This document shows, piece after piece, positions 22,346-41,489 of a stretch of 64,000 bases of DNA. The translations under genes and the position numbers were made by a program. The notes below the pieces were generated by a model. The model was not told the origin of the DNA. It searched no databases and saw only the letters and a program-made list of their open reading frames with translations. The stretch spans positions 218,565 to 282,564 of the forward strand of contig CAWJPN010000001.1 of assembly GCA_963844765.1 (NCBI GenBank). Reading direction: 5' to 3'. Numbering within the stretch: the first letter of the stretch is position 1; every line of letters begins with the position of its first letter. This DNA is from an uncultured Solirubrobacterales bacterium. Its GTDB lineage: Bacteria > Actinomycetota > Thermoleophilia > Solirubrobacterales > Solirubrobacteraceae.

Positions 22346-22412
22346 CGACCGATGAGTGGGTCATACTGTGTATAGGCGAGGGCGTGTGCTCTCACAATCG
22401 AAAGGAACGGAA

Positions 22413-23306
22413 ATGCTAGCGGTAATTGATCAGGCGGAGCGGCTGCGGCAGGCTTCCCCCGCGTGGATGGAGTCCCGAATGAGGGAGTGCGGTTTCACGT
22501 CGGGCATGTCTGCTGCGGAGGGCGACGAGGCCGGCCAGCGGCTCGTCGAGATGGCTGGGAGGGAATACCGGATGCGCGAGGCGGCGGCGCAGACCATCGA
22601 TATGCGCTCGCGGGCGAAGCGCTCGGCGGGGTACCGTTTGCCGACGCCGCCGGCGGATGATTCGATGATGGCGTTCCTCGCGGAGGAGGGAGTTCCGATG
22701 CGGACCCGCGAGGCGACGTATGGTGGCGAAAACGGCACGCCTAAGGTGGCCTATGAGGATCAGGATACCTACCGGGATATAACGGATTTATTCAGCGTCC
22801 TGGATCAGGAATTGGAAAACGGGACGCCGAATCTGGAGAACCGTCAGGTCGAAGAAATTGCGACGGCGATGCAGGAAGGCCGTCCGTTGTCGGATGTGCA
22901 GATCGGTGTGCTGCGTGGTCTGCTCGACAAGTATTCAGCCGAGCTTGCGGCTTTCCGGGCGAGCGGCCGTGAAGGCCAGGACTATGGGAGCGTCCCTGAC
23001 CCGGCGACCGCACGGCTCGCGGAGTCCGCGGCGGGTGGCCTGATCGACTTGTTCGCGGAGGAGCCGCCGCCGGCACCGGGGCCAGACGGCTTGTATGACC
23101 TCAGCGTGGATGGTGTGCCGACTGTCCCGCGTGATGTTGGCGAGGCCGAGGCTTCGCGGCTACGCGAGACCGCGTATGAGCCAGAGGAGGGCCTACTCGA
23201 CCTCCGCGAGTCGGGTGTTCCGATGGTGGGCTCGGTGCCCCGGAAGCCCACAGCAGAGATCCTTGCCGAAGCGAATGAACTCGCCCGGCTGGAGGAGACG
23301 CTGTGA
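22413..23306 (+). CDS. Acidic late protein rich in LxE[S/A/T] motifs (scaffold-like candidate)
   Basis: Strong RBS AAAGGAA; directly after terL; function is inference. Confidence 0.65.
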   Translation: MLAVIDQAERLRQASPAWMESRMRECGFTSGMSAAEGDEAGQRLVEMAGREYRMREAAAQTIDMRSRAKRSAGYRLPTPPADDSMMAFLAEEGVPMRTREATYGGENGTPKVAYEDQDTYRDITDLFSVLDQELENGTPNLENRQVEEIATAMQEGRPLSDVQIGVLRGLLDKYSAELAAFRASGREGQDYGSVPDPATARLAESAAGGLIDLFAEEPPPAPGPDGLYDLSVDGVPTVPRDVGEAEASRLRETAYEPEEGLLDLRESGVPMVGSVPRKPTAEILAEANELARLEETL

Positions 23307-23479
23307 GCGCCGTCGAGACGATCGAGGCTGCGGACCCGGCGCTACAGGGACTCACACGGATCACCGAGTTGCCGGGCGCCGCGCTGCCGGTCGAAGAGTG
23401 CAGGTGGACGCCCGACCTGGCACTTCGCTACGGCGCAGGCGAGGCGCCGGCGAGAAGGCTAACCCAAACAGGTAACTGA
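23303..23479 (+). CDS. Small hypothetical protein (58 aa, below the ORF-track cutoff)
   Basis: GTGA overlap with the upstream stop. Confidence 0.45.
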   Translation: MSAVETIEAADPALQGLTRITELPGAALPVEECRWTPDLALRYGAGEAPARRLTQTGN

Positions 23480-24043
23480 AAGGAATGTCATGGCGATTGA
23501 AGAGTTGGCTCAGGCCGCGAGCCTGAACCCGAGTCCCGCAACGAGCAGTCAGACGGTGGTGGCGCAGCAGGCCCGCGTTGTGTACGGCTGGAGCTACTGG
23601 GGGTGAGTCTTGTTCTTTCGCGCTGTGCCTGCAAGCGGTGCGTGTGCCAGCCGGCGCCTTCCCTTCATCGGGCGCCGTGGCGGGCCAGGGGCTTTCGTTC
23701 CTTTCACCCCTGGCCCGCCGCCTGGCGCGATTGGTTTCGTGGCGGGTCCTCTTCTCCCTGTCGCGGGATGGTGAGCGCCCGGCGTGGTTCGTGATGGTCT
23801 CGCGCCGGGCAGCTCCCAAAGCAAGGGATATGTCGCATCGTCCGACACTTCGGGGCCGTGTCAGCGCTCCGCTTCGACGGCGGCTGTCAGCTCCGTGATC
23901 GTCAGGTCGAGTGCGGCTGCGACCGCGCAGATCGTGCTCCAGGCGGGGTCGGACTGTCCGAGCTACCGGCAATCGTGCTCGTGATCTGCCTGGTCTTCCC
24001 TGCTCGCGGGCGTGGTGTGCGCCGTGATCCTTGGCTGGCAGGT

Positions 24044-24280
24044 CTAGGCGGGGGTGTCCTCGGTGGCCTGCGCGAGCTCGGAGACGGATACGCCGAGCCC
24101 GGCCGCGATGCGCGCGACGGTCGTCCACGCCGGGTTGGATGTGCCGCGCTCGGCGCGGACGTACGCCGTGACGCTCAACCCGGAGCGGTGGATCACGTCC
24201 TCCTGCGTCATGCCGCGCTCTGCCCGCAGGCGACGGATCGCGGCGGCGAGCGCGGGGTCGGGCGGTTCCCTTGTTGGCAT
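24044..24280 (-). CDS. XRE-family repressor (A)
   Basis: IRRLRAERGMTQEDV..SGLS..ERG..NP.W.TV; DNA-level homolog of 36271-36501. Confidence 0.88.
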   Translation of the reverse strand: MPTREPPDPALAAAIRRLRAERGMTQEDVIHRSGLSVTAYVRAERGTSNPAWTTVARIAAGLGVSVSELAQATEDTPA

Positions 24281-24295
24281 GAGAGGAACATGCCG

Positions 24296-24335
24296 TGAAC
24301 TGGTGCGCTAGTCCAGGTGTCAGCGCACCAGTTCA
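24296..24335. promoter_or_regulatory. Perfect 14-bp inverted repeat, probable operator in the divergent promoter region
   Basis: TGAACTGGTGCGCT-N12-AGCGCACCAGTTCA. Confidence 0.65.
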
Positions 24336-24362
24336 AGTGAACCTGTACCGTTTTGCGCGCCT

Positions 24363-24447
24363 CGGCGCTCATCCCCACAGGACGCCGCCCTGGCACGTGG
24401 GCCGGCGTCGGGTGCGCTCGATATCACGCCCGGCGTCGGCTCCTACA
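24363..24447 (+). ncRNA. Candidate structured leader RNA (motif 2, copy A)
   Basis: High identity to 36586-36674; two hairpins with wobble-compatible changes. Confidence 0.55.
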
Positions 24448-24460
24448 CGCGGGGCACACG

Positions 24461-24631
24461 ATGACACGCCAGCGCTCGTTGACCGCGCAACTATTCCGGG
24501 CGGCTCGGCTGTCGGCGACCGCGAGGGCCGTCGCGTCGGGGAATCCGAAGCGGGTAGCTCGCCGCGCGAAGAACATCGCCGTGGGCCGTGCGCTGGGCCG
24601 TGCCGGCGTATGGCGGAGGTTGTGGAAGTGA
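24461..24631 (+). CDS. Small basic protein
   Basis: MTRQRSLTAQLFRAARL..NIAVGRALGRAG. Confidence 0.6.
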   Translation: MTRQRSLTAQLFRAARLSATARAVASGNPKRVARRAKNIAVGRALGRAGVWRRLWK

Positions 24632-24729
24632 CAACGGGCATCGCGTAGGGTACCGTGTCCCGTAGTTGGTGTGGTACCCTTTCTGGCATGGCTCCGGGTA
24701 GGAGCTTCGGCTAAGCGAAAGGACCAACG

Positions 24730-24969
24730 ATGGGCACGACGACAGAGCGGGCCGAGAAGGTGCGCGAGAACCGGCTCAGGGCGATGGCCGAGCGGCAGGG
24801 GCTCGCACTCCGCAAGTCGCGCACCCGCGACCCGCGCGCCCTGGACTACGACCGCTGGATGATCCTCGACCCGACCGTGAAGGGTGGCGTAGTCGGGAAG
24901 GGGCGAACCGGCAAGCCGAGCATGACCCTCGGTGAAGTCGAAGACAACCTGATGGGAGATGATGCGTGA
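24730..24969 (+). CDS. Small phage-type protein upstream of the integrase
   Basis: ENRLRAMAERQGL.L.KSRTRDP; RBS AAGGA. Confidence 0.65.
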   Translation: MGTTTERAEKVRENRLRAMAERQGLALRKSRTRDPRALDYDRWMILDPTVKGGVVGKGRTGKPSMTLGEVEDNLMGDDA

Positions 24970-26203
24970 TGGCACGTCCAACGAGGGGCAGCGTCACGAC
25001 GCACCAGGCCCGCGACGGGGTGACGTACCGCTCGCTGCGGTTTACGGCCTACGGCCAGCGGCGTCGTGTCCCGCTCGGCCCGGTGAGCGACGAAGAGGCG
25101 CAGATCGCGCTGCGCCACGCACTCGCGGATGTCGAGCGTGGCGTGTGGCAGCCGCCCGCCGCGATCGAGCCGCCAGCCGAGGCGACGACCACACCGACGT
25201 TCCATGAGTTCGCCGAGGAATGGTGGACGCTCAACGCGGCGCAGCTCGCCGAGAACACCCAGGCGGACTACCGTTGGCGGCTTGAGAGCCACCTCATCCC
25301 GTACTTCGGGGAACGGCGGCTCGACGCGATCACGTTTGACACGGTGGAGCGGTACATCGCCGCGAAGCTCGCGGAAGACGGCCCGTTGTCGGCGCGGTCG
25401 ATCAACATGACGGTCACGCTGCTCGGCGCGGTCCTGGAGCGTGCGGTGGAGCGTGAGCTGATCGCCCGGAACCCCGCGAAGGGGAAGGGTCGCAGGGTCC
25501 GCGAACGCGCCCCCTCGCGGTGTATCTGGATGCTGCGGGGCAGGTCACGGCGCTGCTGGACGCGGCAGGCGATCTGGACCGCAGCGCATCCCGTGGGCGC
25601 CGGCACGTCGAGCGCCGCGCGATGCTCGCGACGCTGACGTTCGCGGGGTTGCGGATCGGCGAGCTGTGCGCGCTGCGCTGGCGCGACGTGGACCTCGCCG
25701 GCGGATGGCTGCACACGGGCTCCAAGACAGACGCCGGTAGACGCAAGGTGAAGATCCGCGGCGCGCTGCGGGATGAGCTGCTGGCGCTCCGTGGACGCCA
25801 CCAGGACGCGCCACAGACCGCGTACGTGTTCGCCACACGCACCGGGGGACAGATGAGCCCGGACAACTTCCGCAACCGGGTGCTGAGTGCTGCCGTGAGG
25901 CGTGCGGGCGAGCGCCTGGAGGCCGAGGGCCTGCCGCCGCTGCCGGACAAGCTGACGCCGCACTCGCTGCGGCGGACGTTCTGCTCGCTGCTGTACGCGC
26001 TCGGTGAGACGCCGCCCGTCGTCATGAACGAAATGGGGCACACCGATCCGGCGCTCGCGCTGCGGGTCTATGCCCAGGCGATGCGCCGCGGCGAGGATGA
26101 GCAGGCGCAGCTCCGGGAGCTGGTCGAGGGCGGGGTTTTGGCCAATAGTGGCCAACGGGGTGAAAACCGGCCAGTGAGCCCGGCGCCCCGCGAGGTCGCC
26201 TGA
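24969..26203 (+). CDS. int: Tyrosine integrase of element A, frameshifted near 25515-25520
   Basis: GLRIGEL, HSLRRT, MGH, LRVY catalytic set in the second frame; N-terminal domains in the first frame; aligns with int of B. Confidence 0.9.
26135..26157. promoter_or_regulatory. Candidate arm-type site pair of element A near attL
   Basis: GTTTTGGCCAATAGTGGCCAACG, ~80 bp from att. Confidence 0.6.
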
Positions 26204-26206
26204 ACG

Positions 26207-26234
26207 AAAAAACCCCGCGTTTGCGGGGCTTTTT
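26207..26234. terminator. Bidirectional intrinsic terminator
   Basis: AAAAAA-CCCCGCGTTTGCGGGG-CTTTTT between the int stop and the tRNA fragment. Confidence 0.8.
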
Positions 26235-26238
26235 GGAG

Positions 26239-26280
26239 CGCGCCCGGCGCGATTCGAACGCGCGACCTCTCGCTCCGGAG
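26239..26280 (-). repeat. A/B junction att: second copy of the tRNA-Arg 3' half
   Basis: Identical to 13035-13076; identity to the intact tRNA begins at the anticodon loop CTCCGGA. Confidence 0.92.
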
Positions 26281-26365
26281 AACGCGGCCAGTCCCGATCG
26301 GCGGGCATCCAACCCGATGTTTGCTGGGGTTCTGTCGAGCCGGTCCTAGCGATCCGAGGCGATTG

Positions 26366-26399
26366 GGCAGCGAAAAGGCAGCGGAACACGGCTGCTGCC
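26366..26399. promoter_or_regulatory. Candidate arm-type sites of element B (GGCAGCGAAA)
   Basis: Two direct copies (26366, 26377) plus an inverted GCTGCC; matching repeats at 41996-42054. Confidence 0.65.
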
Positions 26400-26445
26400 T
26401 TTTCACTCACGGGTCGTTGCGGGGGGCGCCGGGGGCCTCGGACCT

Positions 26446-26650
26446 CTAGGGCTGCTGCTGCTGCTCGCGCGCGGCCTTCAGCGCGGCCTGCGCCAGCCCG
26501 GCTTCCTTGCCCGCCGCCTCGATCCCGGACACGACCTCATCGAGCGCGAACCGCGCGCCCTCCGGGTCGTCGTGGTCCAGCGACTCGACGGCTGCCGCGA
26601 CTTCTTCCTTCACCTTGTTCAGCCGGCGCTCGATATCGGTGATCGCGCCG
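26446..26650 (-). CDS. Small coiled-coil hypothetical protein
   Basis: C-terminal part of ORF 26446-26970 is helical; start uncertain. Confidence 0.45.
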
Positions 26651-26956
26651 CGGACATGCTGGTCGTGCTCGGGTGAGAAGGCCACGGTCTGGACTCTAGC
26701 GCGAAGCCAACGCCGGCGCGAGGTGTCCGCGCGCGCCCGTAGGCTGTCTCTCGGCAGGAAGTTCTCCGGGCGGGCGGCGCTCCAGTGGGTGGGGTGCCGC
26801 CCGTTTTCTCGGGCGAGGGTCTGAAGTATCGGCACCCACGGTAGGGTCGCGGGCGATGGCACCAGGCGCTTCAAGGCAACTATCGGCGTCGGCGTCCCGG
26901 CAGGGCGATGAGGGCTACCGTTGCGCCGCTCGGACCAAAGCTCTACGCTTACGGCC

Positions 26957-27163
26957 ATGAGCACTCTCAACGTGTCGCGCCGCGCGCGCGTCAGGGCGTC
27001 CCGTCGTGCGGGCTTCTCAAGCGGTGTGGCGTCCGTCTTCCGGCTGCTGGGCCGTGGCCGGCCAGCCCCCCCGCTCGTTCGTCGCGGCCCGGGGTCCCTG
27101 CTCGGGGACGCTCACGCACTCCGGCGCGACGGCGAACGCCTATTCCGTGACGACCCAGCCTAG
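26957..27163 (+). CDS. Small hypothetical protein preceding the DUF2335 gene
   Basis: ATG at 26957; overlaps the next start. Confidence 0.5.
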   Translation: MSTLNVSRRARVRASRRAGFSSGVASVFRLLGRGRPAPPLVRRGPGSLLGDAHALRRDGERLFRDDPA

Positions 27164-27692
27164 CGGCCCGCCAGCGGGTGGATCGCCGGAAGGCCGCCGC
27201 GAGCAGGGGGCCGGCGCTCAAGAACTCGACAGGTCCGAGGATGTCATCGACGGCGAGCCGGTCGTTGACGACACCGCGCGTGACCGGCGCCTAGCGTGGT
27301 CTGCGAGCTTCAGCGGTCCCCTTCCGCCCCCTGCGTCCCTCGCGGAGTACGACCAGACCGTGCCGGGCCTTGCGCGCGAGATCGTGGACCAGTGGAAGGC
27401 CGAGACGGAGCATCGCCACCGCACGATCGACGGGCTGCGCGAAATCGACCGCGACTCGATGCACGCCTACTACGGGAGCGAGCGTCGCGGCCAATGGCTG
27501 GCTCTCGTCGTCTTCCTCGCCGTGATCGCCGTGGCCGTCCTGGCGATCGTCTTGCATCGCGAAGCGGTCGGCGTAGCCGCGATCGTCACCGGGGGCGCCT
27601 CGGCGATATGGGCTATGCGCCGGCGTAGCGACAGCCCCGGCGCCACGGCCCCCCCGACTGACCTCAGCGACGGCGACACCGCGCACGCATAG
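27147..27692 (+). CDS. DUF2335-family membrane protein
   Basis: FSGPLPPP..L.EY...PG.A..I...E.EHRH, then RGQ and two TM helices. Confidence 0.8.
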   Translation: MTTQPSGPPAGGSPEGRREQGAGAQELDRSEDVIDGEPVVDDTARDRRLAWSASFSGPLPPPASLAEYDQTVPGLAREIVDQWKAETEHRHRTIDGLREIDRDSMHAYYGSERRGQWLALVVFLAVIAVAVLAIVLHREAVGVAAIVTGGASAIWAMRRRSDSPGATAPPTDLSDGDTAHA

Positions 27693-27762
27693 ATCCCCCG
27701 CCTCGTTAACGGCCTGACGGCGCCGCCAGCCATCGCAGCCGCTCCAAGGTCTAACGTGATGC

Positions 27763-28044
27763 GTGCAAATTGGCATTGGTGATTCAACCCCAGCCCCCGA
27801 GACGATTCGGGGGCTTCGCCGCGCCGCCCGACTGAGCCAGCAGCAACTCGCCGAAGAGGCTCGGGTCTCAATCAACAGCGTCCGGCTGTTCGAGCAGGGA
27901 TACCGACCAGGCCGCTCAAAAGCCCTGCGTCGCGTGCTCAAAGTCCTCGCCAGCGACCCCGTTAACGAGAACGACGGCGCGGAAACCACCGCACCGTCGC
28001 TCGAAACTTCGCCGGGCGGCCAGGCCCAACATGCCGCAGGCTAG
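27763..28044 (+). CDS. XRE/Cro-like HTH protein, first gene of the B replication operon
   Basis: IRGLRRAARLSQQQLAEEARVS..E.G; C-tail homologous to that of 16072-16410. Confidence 0.8.
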   Translation: MQIGIGDSTPAPETIRGLRRAARLSQQQLAEEARVSINSVRLFEQGYRPGRSKALRRVLKVLASDPVNENDGAETTAPSLETSPGGQAQHAAG

Positions 28045-28047
28045 CGC
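27961..28047 (+). ncRNA. Candidate structured RNA (motif 1, copy B)
   Basis: Near-identical to 16327-16414. Confidence 0.5.
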
Positions 28048-28104
28048 ACCCCAAGGACGCGACGCGCTGGACGCAGATGCCTGCCCGCACGGGGGGCGCT
28101 GCTT

Positions 28105-28296
28105 GTGACCGGGCTGCTTGACCAGCTCGCCGCGCGCTGGGCCGACGCGAGTCGCCAGCGTGCGCGCGCCGGCGATCACAAGCGTGAGCAGCCCGCAGTC
28201 GGTGAGCAAGAGCTGACGGGCGCTGAGCGCGAGCGGGTGCTTCGCGAGCTTCACGAAGATCCCGACTGGGGCGATCAGCCGTGGGGGCGCTCATGA
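28105..28296 (+). CDS. Small hypothetical protein
   Basis: Coupled overlaps on both sides. Confidence 0.5.
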   Translation: MTGLLDQLAARWADASRQRARAGDHKREQPAVGEQELTGAERERVLRELHEDPDWGDQPWGRS

Positions 28297-28670
28297 GCCG
28301 GTCGGACTGGCCCCTCGATCGCGCCCTCGAACGCCTGCGGGTTTACCGCTTGCCGTACCGCTGGGACGAGCAGCACCTATCGACATGGGCGGCCGTCTGT
28401 CCCGCGTGCATGGTCGGCGCCTGGACGCTCACGATCCGAGAGCATGGGCGTGGCGGCCCAATCGACCTTCGCTGTAGCGCGGGATGCGACTCGGCCGACG
28501 TGGCTGCGGTGCTGGAGCGCGACCCCGCTGAGGATCGCATCGAGGAAGCTGAGCAGCGCGCCCGCGAAGCAATCGAGATCGCCGCCGCGTCACGTGACGT
28601 CGCCGCCCGAGCGATCGCGTTCGTCGTCGCCATCCTCGACGAAGACCCTGAACTCGCGAGGGCGGCATGA
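28293..28670 (+). CDS. Stand-alone primase zinc-binding-domain-like protein
   Basis: VCPAC..LTIRE...LRCSAGC; homolog of 16397-16801. Confidence 0.6.
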   Translation: MSRSDWPLDRALERLRVYRLPYRWDEQHLSTWAAVCPACMVGAWTLTIREHGRGGPIDLRCSAGCDSADVAAVLERDPAEDRIEEAEQRAREAIEIAAASRDVAARAIAFVVAILDEDPELARAA

Positions 28671-30079
28671 GCCGAAAGGAAGATCACGCCCTCGGGACAG
28701 TCGGTGAACCATCCGAGACGCCCGTGGGCGCCTACCAGCTGAGCGACCTCGGCAACGCCGAGCGCCTGATCGCCGCGCACGGCGATGACCTGCGCTGGAT
28801 TCCGGGCCTGGGGTGGTTCGCCTGGGACGGGCGGCGATGGCAGCGCGACGAAACGGGCGAGCCGCTGCGCCGCGCGAAGCTGGCCGTCCGCGCGATCCTG
28901 CACGACGCCGCGAACTGCGACGACGACGACGAGCGCAAGGCGACCGCCAAGTGGGCGCGCGCATCGGAAGCCGAGCCGCGGCTGCGTGCCGCGGTGTCGC
29001 TCGCGGCGAGCGAGCGCCGCGTGATCGCCCACGCAGCCGACTTGGACGCGGACCAGTGGGCCTTCAACACACGCGCGGGGACGATCGACCTGCGTACCGG
29101 AGAGCTGCGCCCACACCGACGCGAGGACATGCTGACGAAGCTCGCCCCGGTCGCGTACGACCCGGACGCACGGTGCCCCGTGTGGATGAAGTTCCTGCGC
29201 ACCATCTTCGCCGACGACCAGGAGCTGATCGGGTACGTGCAACGGTGGGCGGGCTACTCGCTCACGGGGTCCACGCGCGAGCAGGTGATCGCGTTGTGCT
29301 GGGGCGCCGGCTCCAACGGCAAGAGCACCCTTCAGGAGACGCTACGCCGCGCCCTCGGCGACTACGCCACACACACCCCCAGCTCCACGCTGCTTGAGCG
29401 CGACCACGGCGACGCGATCCCGAACGACCTCGCCCGTCTGCGCGGCGCCCGGCTCGTCACGGCATCGGAGACCGGCGACGGCCGCCGCCTCGATGAGGAG
29501 CGCGTGAAGGCGATCACCGGCTCCGATGTCATCGCCGCGCGCTACATGCGCGCCGAGTGGTTTGAGTTCGCGCCGAACTTCAAGGTGTGGGCCTCGACCA
29601 ACCACCTGCCGCGAGTGCGCGGAACCGACCACGCCCTGTGGCGACGAATCCGGCTGATCCCCTTCAGCGTCACGATCGCCGACGAGGACCAGGACCGCGA
29701 CCTCCCCGACAAACTCACCCGCGAGCTACCCGGCATCCTCGCGTGGGCCGTACGCGGCTGCCTGGACTGGCAACACAACGGCCTCGGCGCACCAACAGCC
29801 GTCACCACGGCGACACACGAGTACCGCACCGACATGGACCTCATCGGACGGTTCCTCGCCGACTGCTGCGAGGTCAACCCCACCGCCGAGGTCGAGGCCG
29901 CGACGCTCTGGAGCGCCTTCTGCACCTGGGCGGAGGCGAACCACGAGCGCACCGGCACACAGACGACATTCGGACGCCAGCTCACCGAGCGCGGCTTCGA
30001 CACCACCAGGCAAGCCAAGGTGCGCAAGCGCCGAGGACTCACCCTGCTGCCAGACAACGGCGCCGAGGTGACGCGATGA
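28667..30079 (+). CDS. Phage/plasmid P4-family D5-like SF3 helicase
   Basis: SDLGNAERL (D5_N), GAGSNGKST Walker A, RLVTASE, NHLP, ALWRRI. Confidence 0.92.
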   Translation: MSRKEDHALGTVGEPSETPVGAYQLSDLGNAERLIAAHGDDLRWIPGLGWFAWDGRRWQRDETGEPLRRAKLAVRAILHDAANCDDDDERKATAKWARASEAEPRLRAAVSLAASERRVIAHAADLDADQWAFNTRAGTIDLRTGELRPHRREDMLTKLAPVAYDPDARCPVWMKFLRTIFADDQELIGYVQRWAGYSLTGSTREQVIALCWGAGSNGKSTLQETLRRALGDYATHTPSSTLLERDHGDAIPNDLARLRGARLVTASETGDGRRLDEERVKAITGSDVIAARYMRAEWFEFAPNFKVWASTNHLPRVRGTDHALWRRIRLIPFSVTIADEDQDRDLPDKLTRELPGILAWAVRGCLDWQHNGLGAPTAVTTATHEYRTDMDLIGRFLADCCEVNPTAEVEAATLWSAFCTWAEANHERTGTQTTFGRQLTERGFDTTRQAKVRKRRGLTLLPDNGAEVTR

Positions 30080-30171
30080 CGGGTTATGACGAGTTCGCCC
30101 CCTTATCGCCACATAGAACCCCCTACACACGGATAGTGTGTCAACCCGTCACACCCGTCACAACCCGTCAC
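30068..30171. promoter_or_regulatory. Candidate iteron origin of element B
   Basis: TGACGGGTT (30077) faces three tandem (A)ACCCGTCAC copies (30143-30171) across a lower-GC spacer. Confidence 0.7.
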
Positions 30172-30197
30172 GCCGCCACAAGCACGAGGGCGACCTG

Positions 30198-30641
30198 ATG
30201 GCACGCCGGGGCACTCATTCGACCGCGCCGCTCCCGAGTGCGATTCCATCGAGCGGGGGCGCATCGCTGACCTTCACGATCGAGCTGACAGACGCGCAGC
30301 TCGACGTGCTGGCCGATCGTGTCGCCGAGCGGTTGCGCTCGACGCCGGCGGAGCCGCGGTTCGTGGATGCTGCGACGCTGGCGGCCAGGCTCGGCCTGAG
30401 CCGTGACACCGTGTACGCGCGGGCTGCCGACTTCGGCGGCGTGAAGATCAGCGACGGGCCGCGGCCACGGTGGCGATTCGACCTCGACCGCGCGCTGGAG
30501 GCATGGAACGGTCGCTTGGCAAGCGAGAGGTCGCCAGACCCGTCAACGCCCGCCAGTCGGGCGGTTTCGCGGCGTCGGCGGGGTGCGGGAAAAGGCAGCA
30601 GCGCCGGATTGCTGCCTATTCGCGGTGGTGACGATGCCTGA
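30198..30641 (+). CDS. Excisionase-like winged-HTH protein (B)
   Basis: FVDAATLAARLGLSRDTVYARA..GGVKISDGPRPRWRFD. Confidence 0.72.
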   Translation: MARRGTHSTAPLPSAIPSSGGASLTFTIELTDAQLDVLADRVAERLRSTPAEPRFVDAATLAARLGLSRDTVYARAADFGGVKISDGPRPRWRFDLDRALEAWNGRLASERSPDPSTPASRAVSRRRRGAGKGSSAGLLPIRGGDDA

Positions 30642-30831
30642 CGCCGCCAGGAAACCGGCGGTCGAGCCGTGCTACTGCTGCGGCAAGCTCGCGCGCCGCC
30701 GAGTCGAGGTCCGGGACCGGCGCACCGGCGCGACGGCTTGGCTGCCGCTCTGCGCGACCTGCCTCGCGGGCGAGTCGCGCACGTGGCGCCTGCGCTGGGC
30801 GCTCCTCGCCGATGAGGAGGCAGCACCGTGA
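30634..30831 (+). CDS. Small Zn-finger protein
   Basis: CYCCG..LCATC..WRLRW; homolog of 18791-18991. Confidence 0.6.
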   Translation: MPDAARKPAVEPCYCCGKLARRRVEVRDRRTGATAWLPLCATCLAGESRTWRLRWALLADEEAAP

Positions 30832-31094
30832 GCGCGGCGCGCGAGAGTCCACGCCGGGCACCTGGACGCCGGCCGCTGCCGACGTGGGAGGTGGCGATCG
30901 GCGAGCACGACATCCCGCCGCGGTGGCGCATCCCGGCGGGCACGGTGACGCTGGCCGCTGTCAGCGCGGAGGCGGCGCGCACGATGGCCGTGCGCGCGGC
31001 GCACCGCGACGCCGGCGTGCCGCCTCTGCTCTCGATGATCGCCCTCTCGCTGGATCACACGCGCGCTGAGCGGGAGGCCGAGCCGTGCCGTTGA
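30828..31094 (+). CDS. Conserved element protein (homolog of 19601-19873)
   Basis: HDIPPRWRIPA shared. Confidence 0.75.
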   Translation: MSAARESPRRAPGRRPLPTWEVAIGEHDIPPRWRIPAGTVTLAAVSAEAARTMAVRAAHRDAGVPPLLSMIALSLDHTRAEREAEPCR

Positions 31095-31711
31095 GCGAGA
31101 AGCCCGGCGCTCGTGCGCGCCAGCTTGCGAACCTGCGACCGGGAGCCGGTGCGGGCGATGGTGGTCTTGCCCGAGCACGATCGCACGGCGCTTACGCCGC
31201 GATCACCGAGGCCCACCTTCACGACGAGGAGCTGCGGGTCTACGAAGCGCTTGCGGCGGACGCGCCGGTGCGTGCCGATGATGGCGGCCTGCCACGCGAG
31301 GACACCCTGATCGTCAGGCAACTCGCTGAAAGCCTCGTGCGCCTCCAGCGGATCACAACGCATCTGGTGGCGAAGGGCATCGAACGCGACGACGGCAGCC
31401 TGCGTCCAGCGGTCGAGCTGGAGCTGAGGGTGCGCGGGCACGTGCTCGACCTCTGCCGCGAGCTTGGCATGACGCCGAAGTCACGGGCGGCGCTGGGCGT
31501 CGATCTGGTGCGCGTGGCGAACGCCGGCGACCGGCTGCAAGAGCACCTTCAGGCTCGCTACGGCGATGACGCGCTCGACGGCGACGCGGCGGTGGCCGAG
31601 CCGATCGACGCGGCTGCGCTTCCCGCTGACGCCGAGCTGCCCGACGTAGAGGGCGACGAGCACGACCAGGCCGCCGCGGATGACGACGCGATCGAGGGCG
31701 ACGGCGACTGA
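31085..31711 (+). CDS. terS: Terminase small subunit-like protein
   Basis: QLANL..SHGAY and LCRELGMTPKSRAALG; acidic tail. Confidence 0.6.
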   Translation: MPLSEKPGARARQLANLRPGAGAGDGGLARARSHGAYAAITEAHLHDEELRVYEALAADAPVRADDGGLPREDTLIVRQLAESLVRLQRITTHLVAKGIERDDGSLRPAVELELRVRGHVLDLCRELGMTPKSRAALGVDLVRVANAGDRLQEHLQARYGDDALDGDAAVAEPIDAAALPADAELPDVEGDEHDQAAADDDAIEGDGD

Positions 31712-32115
31712 TGCGCCAGCCCGTGACCCTCGACCAGCGGCCCGATGCTGAGGAGGCACGCCTGCGCCTTGTGATCCCCGGCGTGCCGGTCCCGCTGGGG
31801 CGCAGCCGAAGCACGCGCGGCGGCCGTCACTACCTGCCGGCGCGCAGCCGTGCGTACCGCGAGCTGGTGCAGACGTGTTGGATGGCGTCGGGGCGCCCGG
31901 CGCTCGGAGGCGTGCCGTTCGGCTTGTCAGCGCGGTTCTACGGTGCGCGGGCGAACGCGGACCTGGACAACCTCGTGAAGGCCGTGCTCGACGCGCTGAA
32001 CGGGGGGCTGGCGTTCGCCGATGATCGGGCGCTCATGTGTGCCGATGCTCGCAAGCTGCCGGTGGACGTTGGCGGCGCGCGGTGCGAGCTGGAGCTGTGG
32101 GCGGTGGCGGCGTGA
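31711..32115 (+). CDS. rusA: RusA-family Holliday-junction resolvase
   Basis: ADLDNLVKAVLDALN..DD catalytic motif. Confidence 0.88.
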   Translation: MRQPVTLDQRPDAEEARLRLVIPGVPVPLGRSRSTRGGRHYLPARSRAYRELVQTCWMASGRPALGGVPFGLSARFYGARANADLDNLVKAVLDALNGGLAFADDRALMCADARKLPVDVGGARCELELWAVAA

Positions 32116-32182
32116 CTCGCTCAGCCGTTCGCACGGCCCGTCTTGCGGCCTGCCTGCCTGCTCGCAGGTGGAGGGCCGTGGC

Positions 32183-33604
32183 GTGAGGCGGGTGGCGCTC
32201 CTGGATGCCGTGGATGATCCCGACCTGTTGGGCGGCACGCTCACTCCGTGGCCGAGGCAGCGGGATGTGCTGGGGTTGATCGAAGGGTCTCGGTTGAGCG
32301 TTCTCTGCCTTGGGCGTCGTAGCGGGAAGACGACGATGATGGCTCTCGCGGCGCTGCATAGCTGCCTGCTCTCCCCTCACCTTGATCGGTTCGTCCAGCC
32401 GGGTGAGACGCGGTGGGCTGTTGCTATCGCTACGAACCGTCGCCAGGCGCGGCTTATTGTCTCGCAGGCGCGGGCGATCGTGGAGCGCTCACCGTTGCTC
32501 TCGCCGCTGGTCGTGGCTTCGAGTGAGGACGAGATTCGTTTTGAGAATGACACGGCGATCGCGGCGTTTCCGTGTTCGTCGCGTGGTGGTCGCGGCTGGC
32601 CGATTCACTTTCTTGCGTTTGATGAGGCGGCCCATTTCGTGAGTGAGACGGATGGCTTTCAGACGGCCGCGCGGGTGTGGGAAGCGCTTTCGCCGAGTAC
32701 GGCGCAGTTCGTCAATGAGGGTCGGATCGTCGTCTCGTCCACGCCTTACGGGATAGACGGGTTCTTTGCTGACATGCTGGCGCAGGCGGGTGAGGATGAT
32801 GGGGTGGCTTGCGTGCAGTTGGGTACGGAGGAGATGAATCCGACAATCTCGCCGGAGTTCCTTGAGGGGGAGCGCCGGCGCGATCCTGAGAGCTACCGGA
32901 GTGAGTTCCTTGCCGAGCTGGTCGGTTCTGGCAGTTCGTACCTAGATCCCGAGCGCCTGGAGGCCGCGGTTGTCGGTCCGGTGATGCCTGTGAATCCGGA
33001 AATGGGCATGGACTGGCGGGCCGGGATCGACCCTAGTTTCGCCCGAGACCCGACGGGGCTGGCGATCGTTGGGCGTGATGCTCGGCGGCCGGAGAAGCTG
33101 ATCGTTGGGACCGTTCGTGCGTGGAAGCCGGAACGGCCGGAGAGCTTTGAGGAGCGGCGTCTGGTGGAGGATGCGATTCTTGCGGAGGTCGCGCGGGAGT
33201 GCCAGCGTTACGGTGCTCCGGCTGTGACGGACCAGTATGCGAGCAGGGCTGTTGTTGATCGTCTTCAGCGTGCGGGTGTGAGGGTGGAGGCCATCCCGAT
33301 GACTGCAAGCTCGAAGACGGCTGCGTATGCGGAGCTGAGGAGCTTGATCTACACGGGCGAGTTGGAGCTGCCGGATCATCCTGATCTGATTCGTGAGCTG
33401 CGGCGGCTGCGGTCGCGGTACACGGCGGGCAGCGCGAGTGTGGTCAACCCACGTGTCGGTGGGAGTCACGGCGATCTGGCGCAGGCGTTGGCTATCAGTC
33501 TGTATGACCGTGCGTTGGCGGGTGGGCCGCCGGCGGCTGCGGCTGGGGGTGGGAGTGGTATCGCCCAGCAGTACCGGCGTTATTCGGGGTCTGAGTTCGG
33601 GTGA
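32183..33604 (+). CDS. terL: Terminase large subunit (B), intact
   Basis: GRRSGKT, FDEAAH, SSTPYG, GIDP, HGDLAQA. Confidence 0.88.
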   Translation: MRRVALLDAVDDPDLLGGTLTPWPRQRDVLGLIEGSRLSVLCLGRRSGKTTMMALAALHSCLLSPHLDRFVQPGETRWAVAIATNRRQARLIVSQARAIVERSPLLSPLVVASSEDEIRFENDTAIAAFPCSSRGGRGWPIHFLAFDEAAHFVSETDGFQTAARVWEALSPSTAQFVNEGRIVVSSTPYGIDGFFADMLAQAGEDDGVACVQLGTEEMNPTISPEFLEGERRRDPESYRSEFLAELVGSGSSYLDPERLEAAVVGPVMPVNPEMGMDWRAGIDPSFARDPTGLAIVGRDARRPEKLIVGTVRAWKPERPESFEERRLVEDAILAEVARECQRYGAPAVTDQYASRAVVDRLQRAGVRVEAIPMTASSKTAAYAELRSLIYTGELELPDHPDLIRELRRLRSRYTAGSASVVNPRVGGSHGDLAQALAISLYDRALAGGPPAAAAGGGSGIAQQYRRYSGSEFG

Positions 33605-33658
33605 GGGTGGCCGGACGGCCGCGTAGTGTGCGATTAACCAACCAGGAGGATAAATCTG

Positions 33659-34051
33659 ATGGCAACTATTAACAGTGACACGGGGCTGGAGGGGCGTCTG
33701 CTCGGGCTGCTTTGCGAGGGCGGTGTGTGCTCTCGGGATGAGCTGGCGGAAGCGCTCGCCGAGGAAGTCGAGACGGGTCTGCCGGACTTCTCGGCGAGCG
33801 TGGGCGAGGCCCTTGAGGGTCTTGTGAAGGGCGGTCTGGCGCATCGCATCCCCCGTAGTGATTTGCTGGCGGTGTCGCGGCGTGGGCTGCGCGCCCGCCA
33901 GGGTGTAGACCCGAGTGGAGCTGGGCTGCGCGTGCCCGATGGTGAGGCGGTTGGTGCGCTCACGCCGGTCGGTGATCCCGATGCGTCTGACCGGCTCGTC
34001 GGCGGCGCCGAGGGGCTGACGGGGCAGTTGGACACGCTCGGTGTCCGTTGA
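33659..34051 (+). CDS. Winged-HTH-like late protein
   Basis: Strong RBS AGGAGG; CSRDELAEAL...GEALEGLVKGGL. Confidence 0.6.
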   Translation: MATINSDTGLEGRLLGLLCEGGVCSRDELAEALAEEVETGLPDFSASVGEALEGLVKGGLAHRIPRSDLLAVSRRGLRARQGVDPSGAGLRVPDGEAVGALTPVGDPDASDRLVGGAEGLTGQLDTLGVR

Positions 34052-34595
34052 CGCGATCCATCGGGGTGAGCTGGACGCGCTGCTGGAGGCGCTTCCGGCT
34101 GGCCCGTATGAGCATGTTGACCGCGCGTTGTTTCTCGGGGGTGGGTTCGCGGGGTTGCGGCTCGGCGAGCTGATCGAGTTGCGCTGGGGGCATGTGGACT
34201 GGCCGCAGCAGCGCATCCTCGCGCCCGGCCGGTTCGTGCCGCTCGCTGACCGTCTCGGCGCGGCCCTCGACCAGCTCTCGCACAGTGCGGGCGACGCGCC
34301 CGGCCGGCTCGTGTTCTGTGACCCTGTGGCGGGCGGGCCGCTCGACCGCCGGCGGACGCTTGGGCGTCTGCGGGAGGCGTGCGCACGGGCGGGTGTCCCG
34401 CCGCCCCGCGCGTTCGACGCGCTCCGCGCGGGCTTCACGGTGTCGTGCGCGGAGGCCGGTGTCCCGCTCGGCGAGCTGGCGGGTTGGCTCGGGGTGCGCC
34501 TTGGCGCCCTTGAATGGGTGCTCCCGTACACGCTGCCCGGCAACGCTGTCCGCAGGATTCAACCCGTGTTCGCCACCGATGACCGCGACGACTAG
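34041..34595 (+). CDS. Degenerate tyrosine-recombinase catalytic domain
   Basis: GLRLGELIELRWGHVD retained; HxLR is DALR and LGH is LGV; no N-terminal domains. Confidence 0.7.
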   Translation: MSVDAIHRGELDALLEALPAGPYEHVDRALFLGGGFAGLRLGELIELRWGHVDWPQQRILAPGRFVPLADRLGAALDQLSHSAGDAPGRLVFCDPVAGGPLDRRRTLGRLREACARAGVPPPRAFDALRAGFTVSCAEAGVPLGELAGWLGVRLGALEWVLPYTLPGNAVRRIQPVFATDDRDD

Positions 34596-34956
34596 GCCCG
34601 CCGCGCGGCTCGGCGAGGAGCTGGCCGCGGCCCGCCGCCGCGGCGAGACATTCGCGGTGGCATGGCCGGCCGCGTTGGCCGCGGCGCTGGCGTGCGCGCG
34701 CGGGCCGCGAGAACACGCAGAATGGGGCGACGTGTTCCGCGATCTGCGGTCGGTTTGGTGCCAGGCGTTTGAGCGCCGCGGGTCCGGGCGCGGGCTTGGC
34801 GGACTGCTCACAGAGGACCACGACCAGCCGGTCGAGGAGCGGCTATGTGCGCACTGCCACGGCGAGATCCCCGAGGAGCGCCAGGCGAGCGCGATCTACT
34901 GCTCGGCCGACTGCAAGCGAGCAGCACGGGGCGCCCCGCTCGCTGCCGTTGCATAG
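34579..34956 (+). CDS. Hypothetical protein with C-terminal CxxC..YCSxxC zinc finger
   Basis: CAHC..YCSADC. Confidence 0.6.
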   Translation: MTATTRPAARLGEELAAARRRGETFAVAWPAALAAALACARGPREHAEWGDVFRDLRSVWCQAFERRGSGRGLGGLLTEDHDQPVEERLCAHCHGEIPEERQASAIYCSADCKRAARGAPLAAVA

Positions 34957-35032
34957 CCGCGCCGCACAGCAGCGGGAGGGCGAGCGCTGCCCGCCTCGGA
35001 GAGGTGATCCGACCCGCCGCCGCCGTGCGCGT

Positions 35033-35069
35033 CGCGTGGGCGCGAGAAGGCCGTGCGAACGCCCACGCG
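35033..35069. terminator. GC-rich hairpin between convergent transcription units
   Basis: Perfect 10-bp inverted repeat CGCGTGGGCG / CGCCCACGCG; no U-tract. Confidence 0.35.
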
Positions 35070-35138
35070 CGCGGGCGGCGAGGTCTACCCGCCGAGGTCC
35101 AATCGGGGGCCTTGCGCGCGCCGGCGGCGACCGTTGAA

Positions 35139-35366
35139 TCAGTGCTCCGCTTCGACCTTCTCCGCCAGCTCCGCGACGCTCACGTCCAGCGCAGCGGCGA
35201 CGGCTTGTACCGTTGACCACGCGGGGTCCGACTGGCCAAGCTCCAAGCGTGCAAGGGTGCCGGTGGTGAGGCCCGCGGCGACGGCGAGCACTTCCCGCGA
35301 GAGTCCGCGCTCCTCGCGGAGCTGGCGAACGGTCGTTCCGAGCGGTTGGTTGAGGGAGCGTGCCAT
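35139..35366 (-). CDS. XRE-family regulator (B, module 1)
   Basis: VRQLREERGLSREVLA..LELGQSDPAWSTV. Confidence 0.85.
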   Translation of the reverse strand: MARSLNQPLGTTVRQLREERGLSREVLAVAAGLTTGTLARLELGQSDPAWSTVQAVAAALDVSVAELAEKVEAEH

Positions 35367-35608
35367 CGAAGGGGCAGCCTCCCAATTGCCTGCGCCCCTG
35401 TCCACGCGGGATCGCGCGTGCGGAGTATCGCATGTGCGATCGAGTACGCTTCTGAGACGGCAACGAAATGGGGGCCGCGACGGTGTGAGCGCCCGGCCCC
35501 CTGGCACCGGAAGCGACTACTTCCAGCGCGCCAGAACCCTAACCGACCCGGCCGGGGTTTCTTCCTCGCTGAGCCGCCCTCCGGGGCCTCCAACCAAAGG
35601 AGACCCGC

Positions 35609-35923
35609 ATGGCACGCACACGCATCATCATCATCGACGGTGAGTACGCACCGGATGTGCGCACGCTGGCCGGCAAGCTGCTGGCCGAGGACCACGAGCA
35701 CCTGGTCGAGTGGCGCATCGTTCTCGCCCTCGTGCGCAAGGATCACGACGAACGCTGGACGCACGCCGAGCTGGGGCGCGAGCTGGATGGAGTGGAGCCG
35801 GGCGCGCTCGCCGACGCCCTCGGGCGCCTCGCCGAAGCCGGCGTCATCACCCTCGACGGCGATGGCGTGCAGGCCACACAGCCGGTGCTCTACCTCGCCG
35901 CCCTCGGGCTGGTGTCCCTGTGA
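35609..35923 (+). CDS. Winged-HTH-like hypothetical protein
   Basis: RBS AAAGGAG; WTHAEL...DALGRLAEAGVI. Confidence 0.6.
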   Translation: MARTRIIIIDGEYAPDVRTLAGKLLAEDHEHLVEWRIVLALVRKDHDERWTHAELGRELDGVEPGALADALGRLAEAGVITLDGDGVQATQPVLYLAALGLVSL

Positions 35924-36123
35924 GCGCGCGCAGTATCGACCTCACGACGATCGGGAGCCGCTTCCGCATGGGTATCGAACCCGCCGCGCTGCAAGAGGCC
36001 GCGGGCGGTGTGCAGCTCCGCCTACACCTGCACGACGGGCCGCTCGTCGTCTCCTTCACGCCGGCGGAGGCGCGGTGGCTGACGGATACGGTCGCGGAGA
36101 TCATGGGCGGGAGTGGTGCGTGA
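35920..36123 (+). CDS. Small hypothetical protein
   Basis: GTGA-coupled; FTPAEARWL. Confidence 0.45.
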   Translation: MSARSIDLTTIGSRFRMGIEPAALQEAAGGVQLRLHLHDGPLVVSFTPAEARWLTDTVAEIMGGSGA

Positions 36124-36270
36124 TGGGCACCGTCGCCGTGGTGTTCGTGGGCTGCCTCGCGTGCGCTGCGATCCTCGCGTGGCACGTGGATGACGGGGGC
36201 GAGGGAAGATGAGCGCTCACCCGCGTTTCGCCGCCCGCGTGTACGCGCGGGGCGGCCTCGGCCGGCAGGT

Positions 36271-36501
36271 CTAGGCGGCGGTGTCCTCGATGGCCTGCGC
36301 CAGCTCGGCGACCGACATCCCGAAGGTCTTGGCGATCCGTTCGATCGTGCCCCACAGCGGATCGACCTTGCCACGTTCGAGCTTCGAGAGGCCGGAGACG
36401 TTCAGCCGCGCGGCGAACGCGACATCCTCCTGTGTCATCGAGCGTGCTTCTCGGAGCCGCTTGACGGTCGGCCCAACGGCAGGATTCGGCGGCGCACGCA
36501 C
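36271..36501 (-). CDS. XRE-family repressor (B, module 2)
   Basis: VKRLREARSMTQEDV..LERG..DP.W.TI; homolog of 24044-24280. Confidence 0.88.
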   Translation of the reverse strand: MRAPPNPAVGPTVKRLREARSMTQEDVAFAARLNVSGLSKLERGKVDPLWGTIERIAKTFGMSVAELAQAIEDTAA

Positions 36502-36585
36502 GCAATAAACATCCCGCAGTCCGCCTACCAAAGTCCAGGGACGGCAGTCCATAGACTCCGGGGCGTGTATCGTTTTCGAGCGCGC

Positions 36586-36674
36586 CGGCGCTCATCCCCA
36601 CAGGGTGCCGCCCTGGCACGCGGGACCCCCGGCGTCGGGTGCGCTCAACATCACACCCGGCGTCGGGGCCTACA
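36586..36674 (+). ncRNA. Candidate structured leader RNA (motif 2, copy B)
   Basis: Matches 24363-24447. Confidence 0.55.
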
Positions 36675-36764
36675 ACGGAGGATGCGTCGTGGCAGCCCTA
36701 CCACCGATGGCGCCATTCGGGAGCTGCACGTCACGATAGCGCTCGCGTCCGAGGGCGCCGACTG

Positions 36765-37073
36765 ATGGCCTTCTTCGGTATCGAGCGCAACACCGACCAC
36801 CGAGACCCGCAGACAGCCGTCAAGCGCTTCTCCTCCGAACGCGCAGCGGTGCGGTGGCGCGAGGCAACCAAGATCGACGGCCAGTACCCGCGCGCCTACG
36901 CAGCCGACCGTCGTATCCGCGAGGTCTACGAGACATCCACGCGGATCACCGAGCGGATGGTCCTGCGCTATCTCGACCTGAACCGCGGCTCGACATACTC
37001 GCCACGCACGAACGAAGACGCGCGCGCCGCGCTCATCCGCAGCGGCGGAGTGGCCGTGTACGAAGACGCTTGA
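36765..37073 (+). CDS. Hypothetical protein
   Basis: TGATG-coupled to a 27-aa leader ORF (36682-36765) that has a GGAGG RBS. Confidence 0.55.
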   Translation: MAFFGIERNTDHRDPQTAVKRFSSERAAVRWREATKIDGQYPRAYAADRRIREVYETSTRITERMVLRYLDLNRGSTYSPRTNEDARAALIRSGGVAVYEDA

Positions 37074-37120
37074 CCCCGCTCCGCCCGAGCGCGTCTGCCC
37101 GCCCGCCTAAGATGTGCCGT

Positions 37121-37870
37121 ATGCCCACCGTGATCGAGGACAGGCTGCGTGACGCCGAGGCCCGCGCCCGCACGGCCGAGAACATCCTCACCGCCGCCGT
37201 CGTGCTGCGCGAGGCACAGATACCCGCCAGCTCGCCCGAATCCCACCGGCTGTTCAACCAGCTCGTGAAGCTGCCCGACGCCAGCGCGATGCGCGCCCAC
37301 ATCGCCGCGTCGCAAGGCGGCGCGCGTGGCCTCCGCGAGGCCACGTCCTACACGCCCGCCGCTCGCAAGCTGCTCGCCCAGGAAGGCGCCGCTCGACCCG
37401 ATGGGTCCTACCCGATCACGAGCAAGTCGGAGCTTGAAGATGCTTTGGATGACTTCAACCGCTCGGGTGGCAGCGATGCCGACCGGGAGCACATCACCGC
37501 GCGCGCCGACGCGCTTGGCGCCACCGACTGCTTGCCGGCGGACTGGCCCGGCTCCACATGCGCCGTGCCGGTGCAGGAGTCCGAACGCCGGCTGAACGCG
37601 CTCGGCATCCCCACCCTCGACGGTGGGACTCTCGGGCCGGTTCGCCTCCGTGAGGCGACGGCCGGCGACCTTCAGCGACTCGGCATCCCGACGATCGCGG
37701 TCCCCGGCGGGCGCGTCCCGGAGCTGGAGCAGCTCGGCATCCCGACCATCGGGGGCGGTGCCCTCGGGCCGATTCCGCTGCGCGAGAGCGAGGCCGGCAC
37801 CGGGACGCTGCAACACATGCAGTTCTCCACCGACCCCAGCGGCGGCGCGGTCATGCGCCGCCTCACATAG
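37121..37870 (+). CDS. Head-associated-like protein with PDGSYPI domain, LGIPT repeats and LRE[A/S] motifs
   Basis: RKLLAQEGAARPDGSYPI..REHITARADALG..LPADW; three LGIPT repeats. Confidence 0.6.
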   Translation: MPTVIEDRLRDAEARARTAENILTAAVVLREAQIPASSPESHRLFNQLVKLPDASAMRAHIAASQGGARGLREATSYTPAARKLLAQEGAARPDGSYPITSKSELEDALDDFNRSGGSDADREHITARADALGATDCLPADWPGSTCAVPVQESERRLNALGIPTLDGGTLGPVRLREATAGDLQRLGIPTIAVPGGRVPELEQLGIPTIGGGALGPIPLRESEAGTGTLQHMQFSTDPSGGAVMRRLT

Positions 37871-37887
37871 AGGAACGCCCGCCCGCC

Positions 37888-38304: not shown

Positions 38305-38592
38305 ACGCCGCGCACCCTCTCAGGGCGCCGTGAGAGCCGTTCGCACGGCCACCACGCGGCGATCCAGAGCTGCCCCGGCCGTTCGGTCGGCCGATGATGT
38401 CGAGCCTGCCATACGCGCCCGTGTGCTCCGGGTCGTGGTCGTGCCTGACTGGCAGCTCGCGGAACGCCTCGACTCGCGCACCTGCCGACGCTGCACCGTC
38501 CCGGCCGCAACTCGCGCGGCGGCGGTACTCACCAGCGGTCGCAGCCGATCACCGATCACCGTCCGAACGCGCTCCCCGACGAGCGCCGCGGG

Positions 38593-41451: not shown

Positions 41452-41489
41452 GGTGGTGGGTTCTCCTATCGGGTTGGGTGGTGGTGTGC

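Follow-up and report, generated by a model that had tools for sequence, protein, structure and literature searches.

A candidate integrase arm-type site within the excisionase-like gene of tandem satellite-like elements from Solirubrobacterales

Two tandem elements and the repeats at their ends

The stretch of DNA analysed here (the window, 64 kb) contains a single tRNA gene, tRNA-Arg(CCG), on the minus strand at 42132-42206, which is an integration target. The 3' part of this gene is repeated in the att sequences at 42133-42174, 26239-26280 and 13035-13076, and the DNA between them therefore represents two elements in tandem: A (13077-26238) and B (26281-42132), both satellite-like. In element B, a plus-strand gene for a D5_N/DUF5906 primase-helicase (28667-30079) lies directly 5' of an excisionase-like HTH gene (30198-30641, plus strand; alternative GTG start at 30138) that matches phrog_66, 'excisionase and transcriptional regulator', with E = 1.7e-6. 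The C-terminal tail of the HTH protein has a basic patch and the motif LLPIRG. The HTH stop is overlapped (ATGCCTGA) by the start of a plus-strand gene for a small CxxC...CxxC protein (30634-30831); downstream of it come a TerS-like gene (31085-31711), the RusA gene (31711-32115) and the TerL gene (32021-33604). The tyrosine integrase of B (Int-B; 38593-39825, minus strand) is intact and heterobivalent, and its nearest named relative, at 97% identity, is annotated as from a Solirubrobacteraceae MAG.

Element A has the same gene plan, but its int is frameshifted and its TerL gene carries stops, and it looks like a decaying copy. The A integrase is split over two frames (24966-25637 and 25520-26203) and in-frame stops are present in the TerL region at 20824-21741. 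The HTH gene of A (about 18080-18436) is homologous to that of B, with 45% identity over 83 aa, as a preliminary description of this DNA had proposed. Elements of this type resemble phage satellites (P4-like, PICI) in being 13-16 kb long and tRNA-integrated, and in encoding an integrase, an AlpA/Xis-like HTH protein, a D5-type primase-helicase and a small terminase subunit; a search for capsid genes gave none, and several ORFs are unassigned. They differ in also carrying a TerL-like gene and RusA, in occurring in Solirubrobacterales and in having no known helper phage.

Element B also contains a truncated integrase-like ORF (34041-34595) with 84% identity over 55 nt to the int of A (25639-25693). 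A similar 186-aa Phage_integrase ORF lies at the same place in the relative L139 (5602-6162), and the ORF is thus conserved in B-type elements. Compared with close relatives, the HTH_3-int module of B (38499-40157) is inverted; it matches positions 11310-9666 of L136, where int points toward the tRNA, at 90% identity. A 1.8-kb segment present only in B (40158-41994, with minus-strand genes at 40580-41714) separates this module from the P arm. In L136, the breakpoint on the right (11310-11364) adjoins the start of the P-arm array.

Short repeats flank the att cores on both sides. The P-arm array of B, beside the tRNA gene (41996-42054), is made of GGCAGCGAAA-type units at 11-bp spacing, at 41996, 42007, 42018 (degenerate), 42030 and 42041; the GGCAGCGAAA units themselves are found at 41996, 42007, 42030 and 26366, and with one mismatch at 26377. 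The last P-arm pair (42030-42050) ends 82 nt from the tRNA, the position typical of the family. At the distal end of B, the P' arm (26366-26404) combines direct units at 26366 and 26377 with an inverted unit at 26391-26404. In element A, the P-arm pair TTGGCCAATAGTGGCCAAC (26135-26157) is inside the 3' end of the frameshifted int, 82 nt from the tRNA remnant, and the P' pair is at 13184-13208. By automatic detection, 23 of 28 relatives have a tandem pair of ~10-bp direct repeats whose end is 78-95 nt from the tRNA; by inspection, the remaining relatives mostly have palindromic or 11-bp-spaced variants at the same place. The position holds both where the pair falls in the 3' coding end of int and where it falls in non-coding DNA. 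Copies in P' were found in A, B, S121, S127, R01, R33 and R36. The motif itself varies by element, with TGGGCAC, TGGGCAGC, TGGCCAA, TGGCAGAC, ACTGCCA, AAGGCAGC and GGGCGAA all represented.

Two further properties of the end repeats were recorded. On either strand, the P' inverted repeat of B (26372-26404) folds into a hairpin of very high stability (z about -5), and TTTTC comes after it. The minus-strand gene 26446-26970 lies 42 nt upstream, and the hairpin may double as its terminator. In many relatives the codons for the Int C-terminal motif DWAxxG(T/S) are provided by the P-arm pair, which falls within int (e.g. 26135-26157), one DNA serving both as codons and as the putative docking site of the encoded Int.

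A replica of the arm motif in the 3' end of the excisionase-like gene

The sequence GAAAAGGCAGCAGCGCCGG at 30589-30607, inside the HTH gene of B, is identical over 19 nt to 42036-42054, exactly as the preliminary description had reported. With up to three mismatches allowed, there are only two copies in the 64 kb (0.05 expected from shuffles). The match had also been said to run on into an inverted TGCTGCC resembling the repeat on the attR side of B, and the inverted TGCTGCC(T) is indeed present at 30610-30617. The full candidate internal Int-arm-type site (30589-30621) reads GAAAAGGCAGCAG-CGCCGGA-TTGCTGCCTATTC, with the left half-site at 30589-30601, the spacer at 30602-30608 and the right half-site at 30609-30621. 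This 13+7+13 bp inverted repeat has the same geometry as GAAAAGGCAGCGG-AACACGG-CTGCTGCCTTTTC at the distal end of B (26372-26404). Within A and B, AAGGCAGC occurs at three clusters only: the P arm, the P' arm and the internal site.

The equivalent site in A, GTTGGCCACTATCGGCCAAAACC (18370-18392), is inside the 3' end of the HTH gene of that element and, read against the reverse complement of 26135-26157, agrees at 22 of 23 positions. When the terminal 300 nt of each element were compared all-against-all with its interior, the internal sites themselves gave the longest words in common, of 19 and 14 nt for B and of 14 and 13 nt for A, which bears out the earlier observation that each element carries the motif of its own att ends at this position. 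Scanning the genome contigs with the B-type site pattern gave no match, and nor did searching them with the HTH protein of B.

Near the 3' end of the HTH gene, the internal site occupies the part coding for the variable, disordered linker and the LLPI motif. In B it codes for G-K-G-S-S-A-G-L-L-P-I of the protein tail and ends 13 nt upstream of the start of the small CxxC gene (30634). Its distances are 4.3 kb to the attR-side core, 11.5 kb to the tRNA and 8 kb to int. In classical systems, arm sites are found inside attP, no more than about 250 bp away from the core. The B site is outside the ~250 bp att region and is therefore an extra-att copy, not a part of attP.

To place the site in its family, we used the HTH protein family, which is present in 114 of 401 genomes of the same order. 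We examined 40 loci of 40 kb each, to which 20 further loci, found with TerL in the genus, were added. In about 30 of the 40 loci the HTH gene is directly upstream of int (gap 0-230 nt), followed by the tRNA, which points to HTH(xis-like)-int-att as the ancestral module. In A, B and a minority of relatives, packaging genes are inserted between HTH and int. Three further HTH homologues occur in the same genome as A and B (C2:1150116-1150565, C2:1192450-1192827 and C2:2494392-2494901); one belongs to a classical xis-int pair beside tRNA-Ala(TGC) and another to an 8-kb element with two att repeats at tRNA-Arg(CCT). No end/interior match was found in the elements of these three homologues (C, D and E).

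Each of the 15 separated elements, with HTH apart from int, was scanned in an unbiased manner with its own P-arm block. In 11 of them (A, B, R20, R38, R01, S120, S121, S122, S125, S127 and S133) the own arm motif found its best match, or the next best behind the P' arm, at 40-130 nt past the HTH domain, where the chance of an own-motif match is about 1-2% per element. As the satellite set is drawn largely from one genus and from MAGs, these 11 are not all independent and represent roughly five or six motif classes. The other four had no clear site (R33, R36, R06, which was weak, and S131). Smith-Waterman z scores against random windows were 13 for A, 8 for B, 7.2 for R20 and 6.3 for R38. Exact longest-common-substring tests of tail against arm were too insensitive for motifs of 7-10 bp and were dropped in favour of the block, Smith-Waterman and unbiased scans. 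Examples of the correspondence are R20 (P arm CGTCTGCCACCGTCTGCCACAACGTC, tail CCGTCTGCCACAACGTCTGCCG), S122 (ACTGCCATCTACTGCC at both ends, tail ACTGCCAGCTACTGCC) and R01 (P' TTTGGGCAGCAG-N7-CTGCTGCCCAAA, tail TATGGGCAGCAG-N7-CTGCTGCCCATA). The sites are direct repeats in A-type, R20-type and S-type elements and inverted repeats in B and R01. The proposed co-variation of the internal site with integrase specificity thus extends beyond A and B, and the comparison supports co-variation of the site with the att-arm motif of each element.

Several features of the sites also support selection acting at the level of the DNA. Among the close relatives A and S121, a single-base T/G change is compensated between the two positions, with GTTTTGG in both arm and tail of A and GTTGTGG in both arm and tail of S121. 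The peptides encoded over the sites differ (RLPQRLPKPG, SLATAGQKPG, VGHYRPKPG, HCQLLPVG and GKGSSAGLLPI) while the DNA matches the own arm. The B site is written in rare codons (shares of the codon family in this genome: AAA 5.6%, TTG 5.8%, CCT 4.6% and ATT 3.0%), and a very rare CTA codon is kept in all three S-type elements. In the B-type relatives L137 and L139 (Int 97% and 81% identical, respectively), both half-sites are kept and the spacer is changed, and in these loci AAGGCAGC is confined to the P arm and the tail. What all B-type elements share of the match is the 13 nt of GAAAAGGCAGCAG, the further 6 nt of identity being specific to B. As the decaying element A nevertheless keeps its site, presence alone is no proof of current function.

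Part of the right half-site of B is constrained by protein sequence, since its codons TTG CTG CCT ATT encode the conserved LLPI peptide. The C-termini of the HTH family have an Arg-rich basic patch followed in most members by a conserved LLPI(R/K/H)G peptide (30606-30626 in B), which by analogy with lambda Xis might serve as a tail for contacting Int; in an A-like subgroup its place is taken by KPGAIL.PRPR. In the canonical relatives with HTH directly upstream of int (about 20), the internal site is absent and the TGCTGCC part simply codes for LLPI(R/K)G; Smith-Waterman z was below 2.5 in about 20 canonical elements, the exceptions being R08 (4.7), R02 (3.2) and R31 (2.8). The expectation that family members in general would carry their own att-proximal repeat near the end of the xis-like gene therefore held for 11 of the 15 separated elements but not for the canonical HTH-int relatives. 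The site is thus not essential to the recombination system, and its absence where HTH adjoins int suggests a site that makes up for the two genes being apart or takes advantage of it.

The repeats follow the integrase

Across about 60 related loci, the arm-repeat sequence tracks the integrase and neither the excisionase-like HTH protein nor the primase. Loci R12 and R14, from one genome (G379), have HTH domains that are 100% identical and Ints that are 48% identical, and their arm motifs differ. Conversely, R12 and R19 have an arm motif in common, with Ints 88% identical and HTH proteins 72% identical, and the 22/23-identical site of A and S121 accompanies primases of different types. Elements of the TGGCCAA motif class have the Int N-terminal motifs YRSLRF and RRRVPLG in common. 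It is the canonical relatives that tell Int apart from HTH as the protein tracked by the motif; in the satellite subgroup, Int and HTH are usually inherited together. The R12 and R14 integrases target tRNA-Val(CAC) and tRNA-Arg(CCT), respectively, and the combination with one HTH domain indicates that xis-like and int genes have been exchanged as modules.

In the AlphaFold2 model (mean pLDDT 87), Int-B has an N-terminal domain of three strands and a helix at residues 7-60 (strands 7-12, 19-26 and 29-37, helix 44-60; pLDDT 86-94), a disordered linker at 61-81 and then the core-binding and catalytic domains. In the predicted structure the N-terminal domain is thus separated by a linker from the rest of the protein, as in an integrase that reads arm-type sites, and full-length lambda Int (1z1b, 1z1g and 5j0n) is among the top fold matches of the model, with 367-390 aligned columns. 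Pfam and PDB sequence searches recognised neither the Int N-domain nor the HTH domain. The repeats are distinct from the core, are present on both arms, keep a conserved distance from the core and have a specificity that follows the integrase. From this behaviour of the motif, its conserved placement and the lambda-type N-terminal fold, we infer that the att-proximal repeat pairs are most likely Int arm-type sites.

The repeats are accordingly close in form to the arm-type sites of lambda (P1/P2/P'1-3), mycobacteriophage L5 (pairs) and Tn916 (DR2): short non-core repeats in pairs about 10-11 bp apart, on both arms and at a fixed distance from the crossover, with a motif that co-varies with Int and a small N-terminal beta-sheet Int domain (predicted here) as the reader. 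Unlike in those systems, there is a third cluster in the coding 3' end of another gene, with the nearer att end 4.3 kb away and int 8 kb away.

Alternative readings and the proposed role of the internal site

Proteins other than Int could in principle read the repeats. RDFs doubling as transcription factors are well known, and the HTH protein, being excisionase-like (phrog_66), might be a dual-function RDF of the P2 Cox, 186 Apl or P4 Vis kind that binds in the att arms and also autoregulates at the end of its own gene; those proteins likewise use one short repeat both at att and at a distant regulatory position, and in the satellite subgroup the co-inherited HTH and Int are inseparable as candidates. 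There the binder is the RDF, however, whereas here repeat specificity does not follow the RDF: the motifs of R12 and R14 differ along with their Ints despite identical HTH domains, and tandem 10-bp pairs on both arms at a fixed core distance form an arm-type pattern. We consider an operator of the HTH protein unlikely, and the possibility raised beforehand, that the repeats are bound by Xis, is disfavoured on the same grounds. A replication function, with the repeats serving the adjacent D5-type primase-helicase as iterons (in the manner of P4 ori/crr), or a role as an RNA hairpin or terminator of the HTH gene, would fit the location about 500 nt downstream of the primase-helicase gene and the inverted repeats in B and R01. 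The repeats of P4 ori/crr and SaPI ori follow their initiator and flank an AT-rich origin, and neither is the case here: relatives without a primase keep the same motif pairs at the fixed tRNA distance, A and S121 have a common site with different primase types, and there is no AT-rich tract. The iteron reading was rejected on the primase evidence. As for RNA, the fold of the site is no more stable than that of shuffled sequence (z = -0.5), there is no U-tract or terminator-like site, the sites of A-type, R20-type and S-type elements repeat directly and form no hairpins, no consistent orientation toward int transcripts is kept (S122, B), and the sole Rfam match in 12500-42500 is the tRNA, none being at the site; the terminator, hairpin and structured-RNA readings were likewise set aside. 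Taken as a whole, the iteron or hairpin explanation is highly improbable. Pairing between the tail of the HTH mRNA and the 3' end of the int mRNA would fit A and R20 and was rejected because the B array is outside any int transcript and S122 has the same orientation.

The remaining alternatives derive the site from att itself. A core-like 13-mer of uncertain significance, AGCGAGAGGTCGC (30522-30534, plus strand), 67 nt upstream of the internal site, is the reverse complement of the att core/tRNA segment 42156-42168 and encodes S-E-R-S with a rare AGG codon; A has a counterpart at 18297-18307, and the SERS-coding sequence recurs in the tRNA-Arg(CCG) elements S116, S121, S122 and S125. The internal site could therefore be a non-functional relic, an att half-site duplicated in an old rearrangement that separated HTH from int and kept similar by recency or gene conversion. 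Consistent with this, the site is found only where HTH and int are separated, A 18293-18392 mirrors the order core - hairpin - arm pair of the left end of A, and B-type elements do rearrange, as the inverted int module attests. Against it, a single relic would have had to track changes of Int through at least five motif classes, and a relic explains neither the compensatory change between A and S121, nor half-sites conserved beside diverging spacers, nor the maintained rare codons. A relic is possible as the origin of the site, but as its full explanation we think it quite unlikely. Alternatively, the core-like sequence and the arm pair might together form a pseudo-att at which Int inverts or deletes the DNA between the HTH gene and the true att. 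The core match spans 13 nt in B and is 11-12 nt long in A, S116, S122 and S125, elements that all sit at tRNA-Arg(CCG), it uses the rare AGG codon, and the core-to-arm spacing of 79 nt in S122 equals that at the real tRNA junction. Yet R38 (Gly), R06 (Val) and R01 (Ala) lack a core match to their own tRNA, R20, at another tRNA, keeps SERS with synonymous changes (AGC GAA CGG TCG), the int-module inversion in B has its breakpoints elsewhere, and there is no P-side arm upstream of the pseudo-core. With the core match restricted to tRNA-Arg(CCG) elements, the pseudo-att is therefore retained as a minor and very unlikely alternative.

We thus favour reading 30589-30621 as a third cluster of Int arm-type binding sites, a near replica of the P' inverted repeat of B that also has 19 nt in common with the last unit of the P arm. 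The N-terminal arm-binding domain of Int-B would bind this site as it would the P and P' arms, and we regard such binding as likely. The site would lie inside an operon running from the primase gene through HTH, small Zn-ribbon genes, terS and rusA to terL, with the next, translationally coupled gene following after 13-60 nt. Bound Int would then most likely act as a transcriptional roadblock or repressor, or as an architectural anchor, and its occupancy would be linked to expression of the excisionase-like gene and the downstream packaging genes. Given binding, one of these three roles, linking the presence of Int on the site to expression across the boundary between replication/excision and packaging genes, would by inference be the most economical function. 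No promoter or terminator consensus was found near the internal site of B, and a regulatory output is therefore conjecture. Taken together, a third arm-type cluster bound by the element's own Int in one of these roles is, on the sequence evidence, the explanation we hold to be probable. Of the selected Int-feedback circuit suggested by the preliminary description, selection at the DNA level is supported (T/G compensation, rare codons and differing peptides), the feedback itself would be conjecture, and the site is not universal in the family; the suggestion is thus supported in part.

That description did not recognise such a circuit from lambda, P2/P4 or SaPI models, and here precedents do exist. 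P4 Int autoregulates int via att-resident sites overlapping the int promoter. In KplE1, with the pair IntS/TorI, int is likewise negatively autoregulated via att sites that overlap its promoter (PMC2951348). The common element is an Int that is a DNA-binding regulator through recombination sites, with a feedback logic (proposed in our case); the KplE1 and P4 sites are att arm sites that control the int promoter inside attL, unlike the B site, which does not overlie an int promoter in attL but is outside att, in the HTH gene of a different transcription unit from int and in an operon toward packaging genes. Tn916 Int binds oriT and directs cleavage by Orf20 (Hinerfeld & Churchward 2001; Rocco & Churchward 2006, as cited in PMC5812530). 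As far as that citing account goes, this is again an integrase at an internal non-att site of its own element (putative in our case), coupling recombination to a later DNA transaction; it differs in that Tn916 is an ICE and its target an origin of transfer, while a nicking or packaging site is without support here. On the sources as cited, att-resident int autoregulation in KplE1 and P4 and Tn916 Int at oriT are the closest precedents, and we therefore see the idea as a variation on a theme already described. That theme is an Int active outside strand exchange; an extra-att arm replica in the RDF-like coding sequence of satellite-type elements is what differs, an arrangement for which we found no description in the literature searched.

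If Int does bind the internal site, a tyrosine integrase would be recruitable as a sequence-specific regulator far from its attachment site, a coding sequence would have been shaped down to its rare codons and linker peptides to hold that site, and satellites with a split ancestral xis-int module would have re-linked the two functions via DNA sites. A more far-reaching possibility, which we put forward tentatively and think doubtful as it stands, is that this Solirubrobacterales satellite-like family evolved an extra-att Int-binding module in the excisionase-like gene, possibly including the core-like half-site, through which Int occupancy might gate the passage from early (replication/excision) to packaging transcription. 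Were this true, it would be a recombinase-as-checkpoint circuit, undescribed for lambda, P2/P4, SaPI or PICI systems. The genomic signature, an element's own arm motif inside its RDF gene, would also predict arm-type specificity, and the finding brings to light a satellite family from an actinobacterial order that has received little study.
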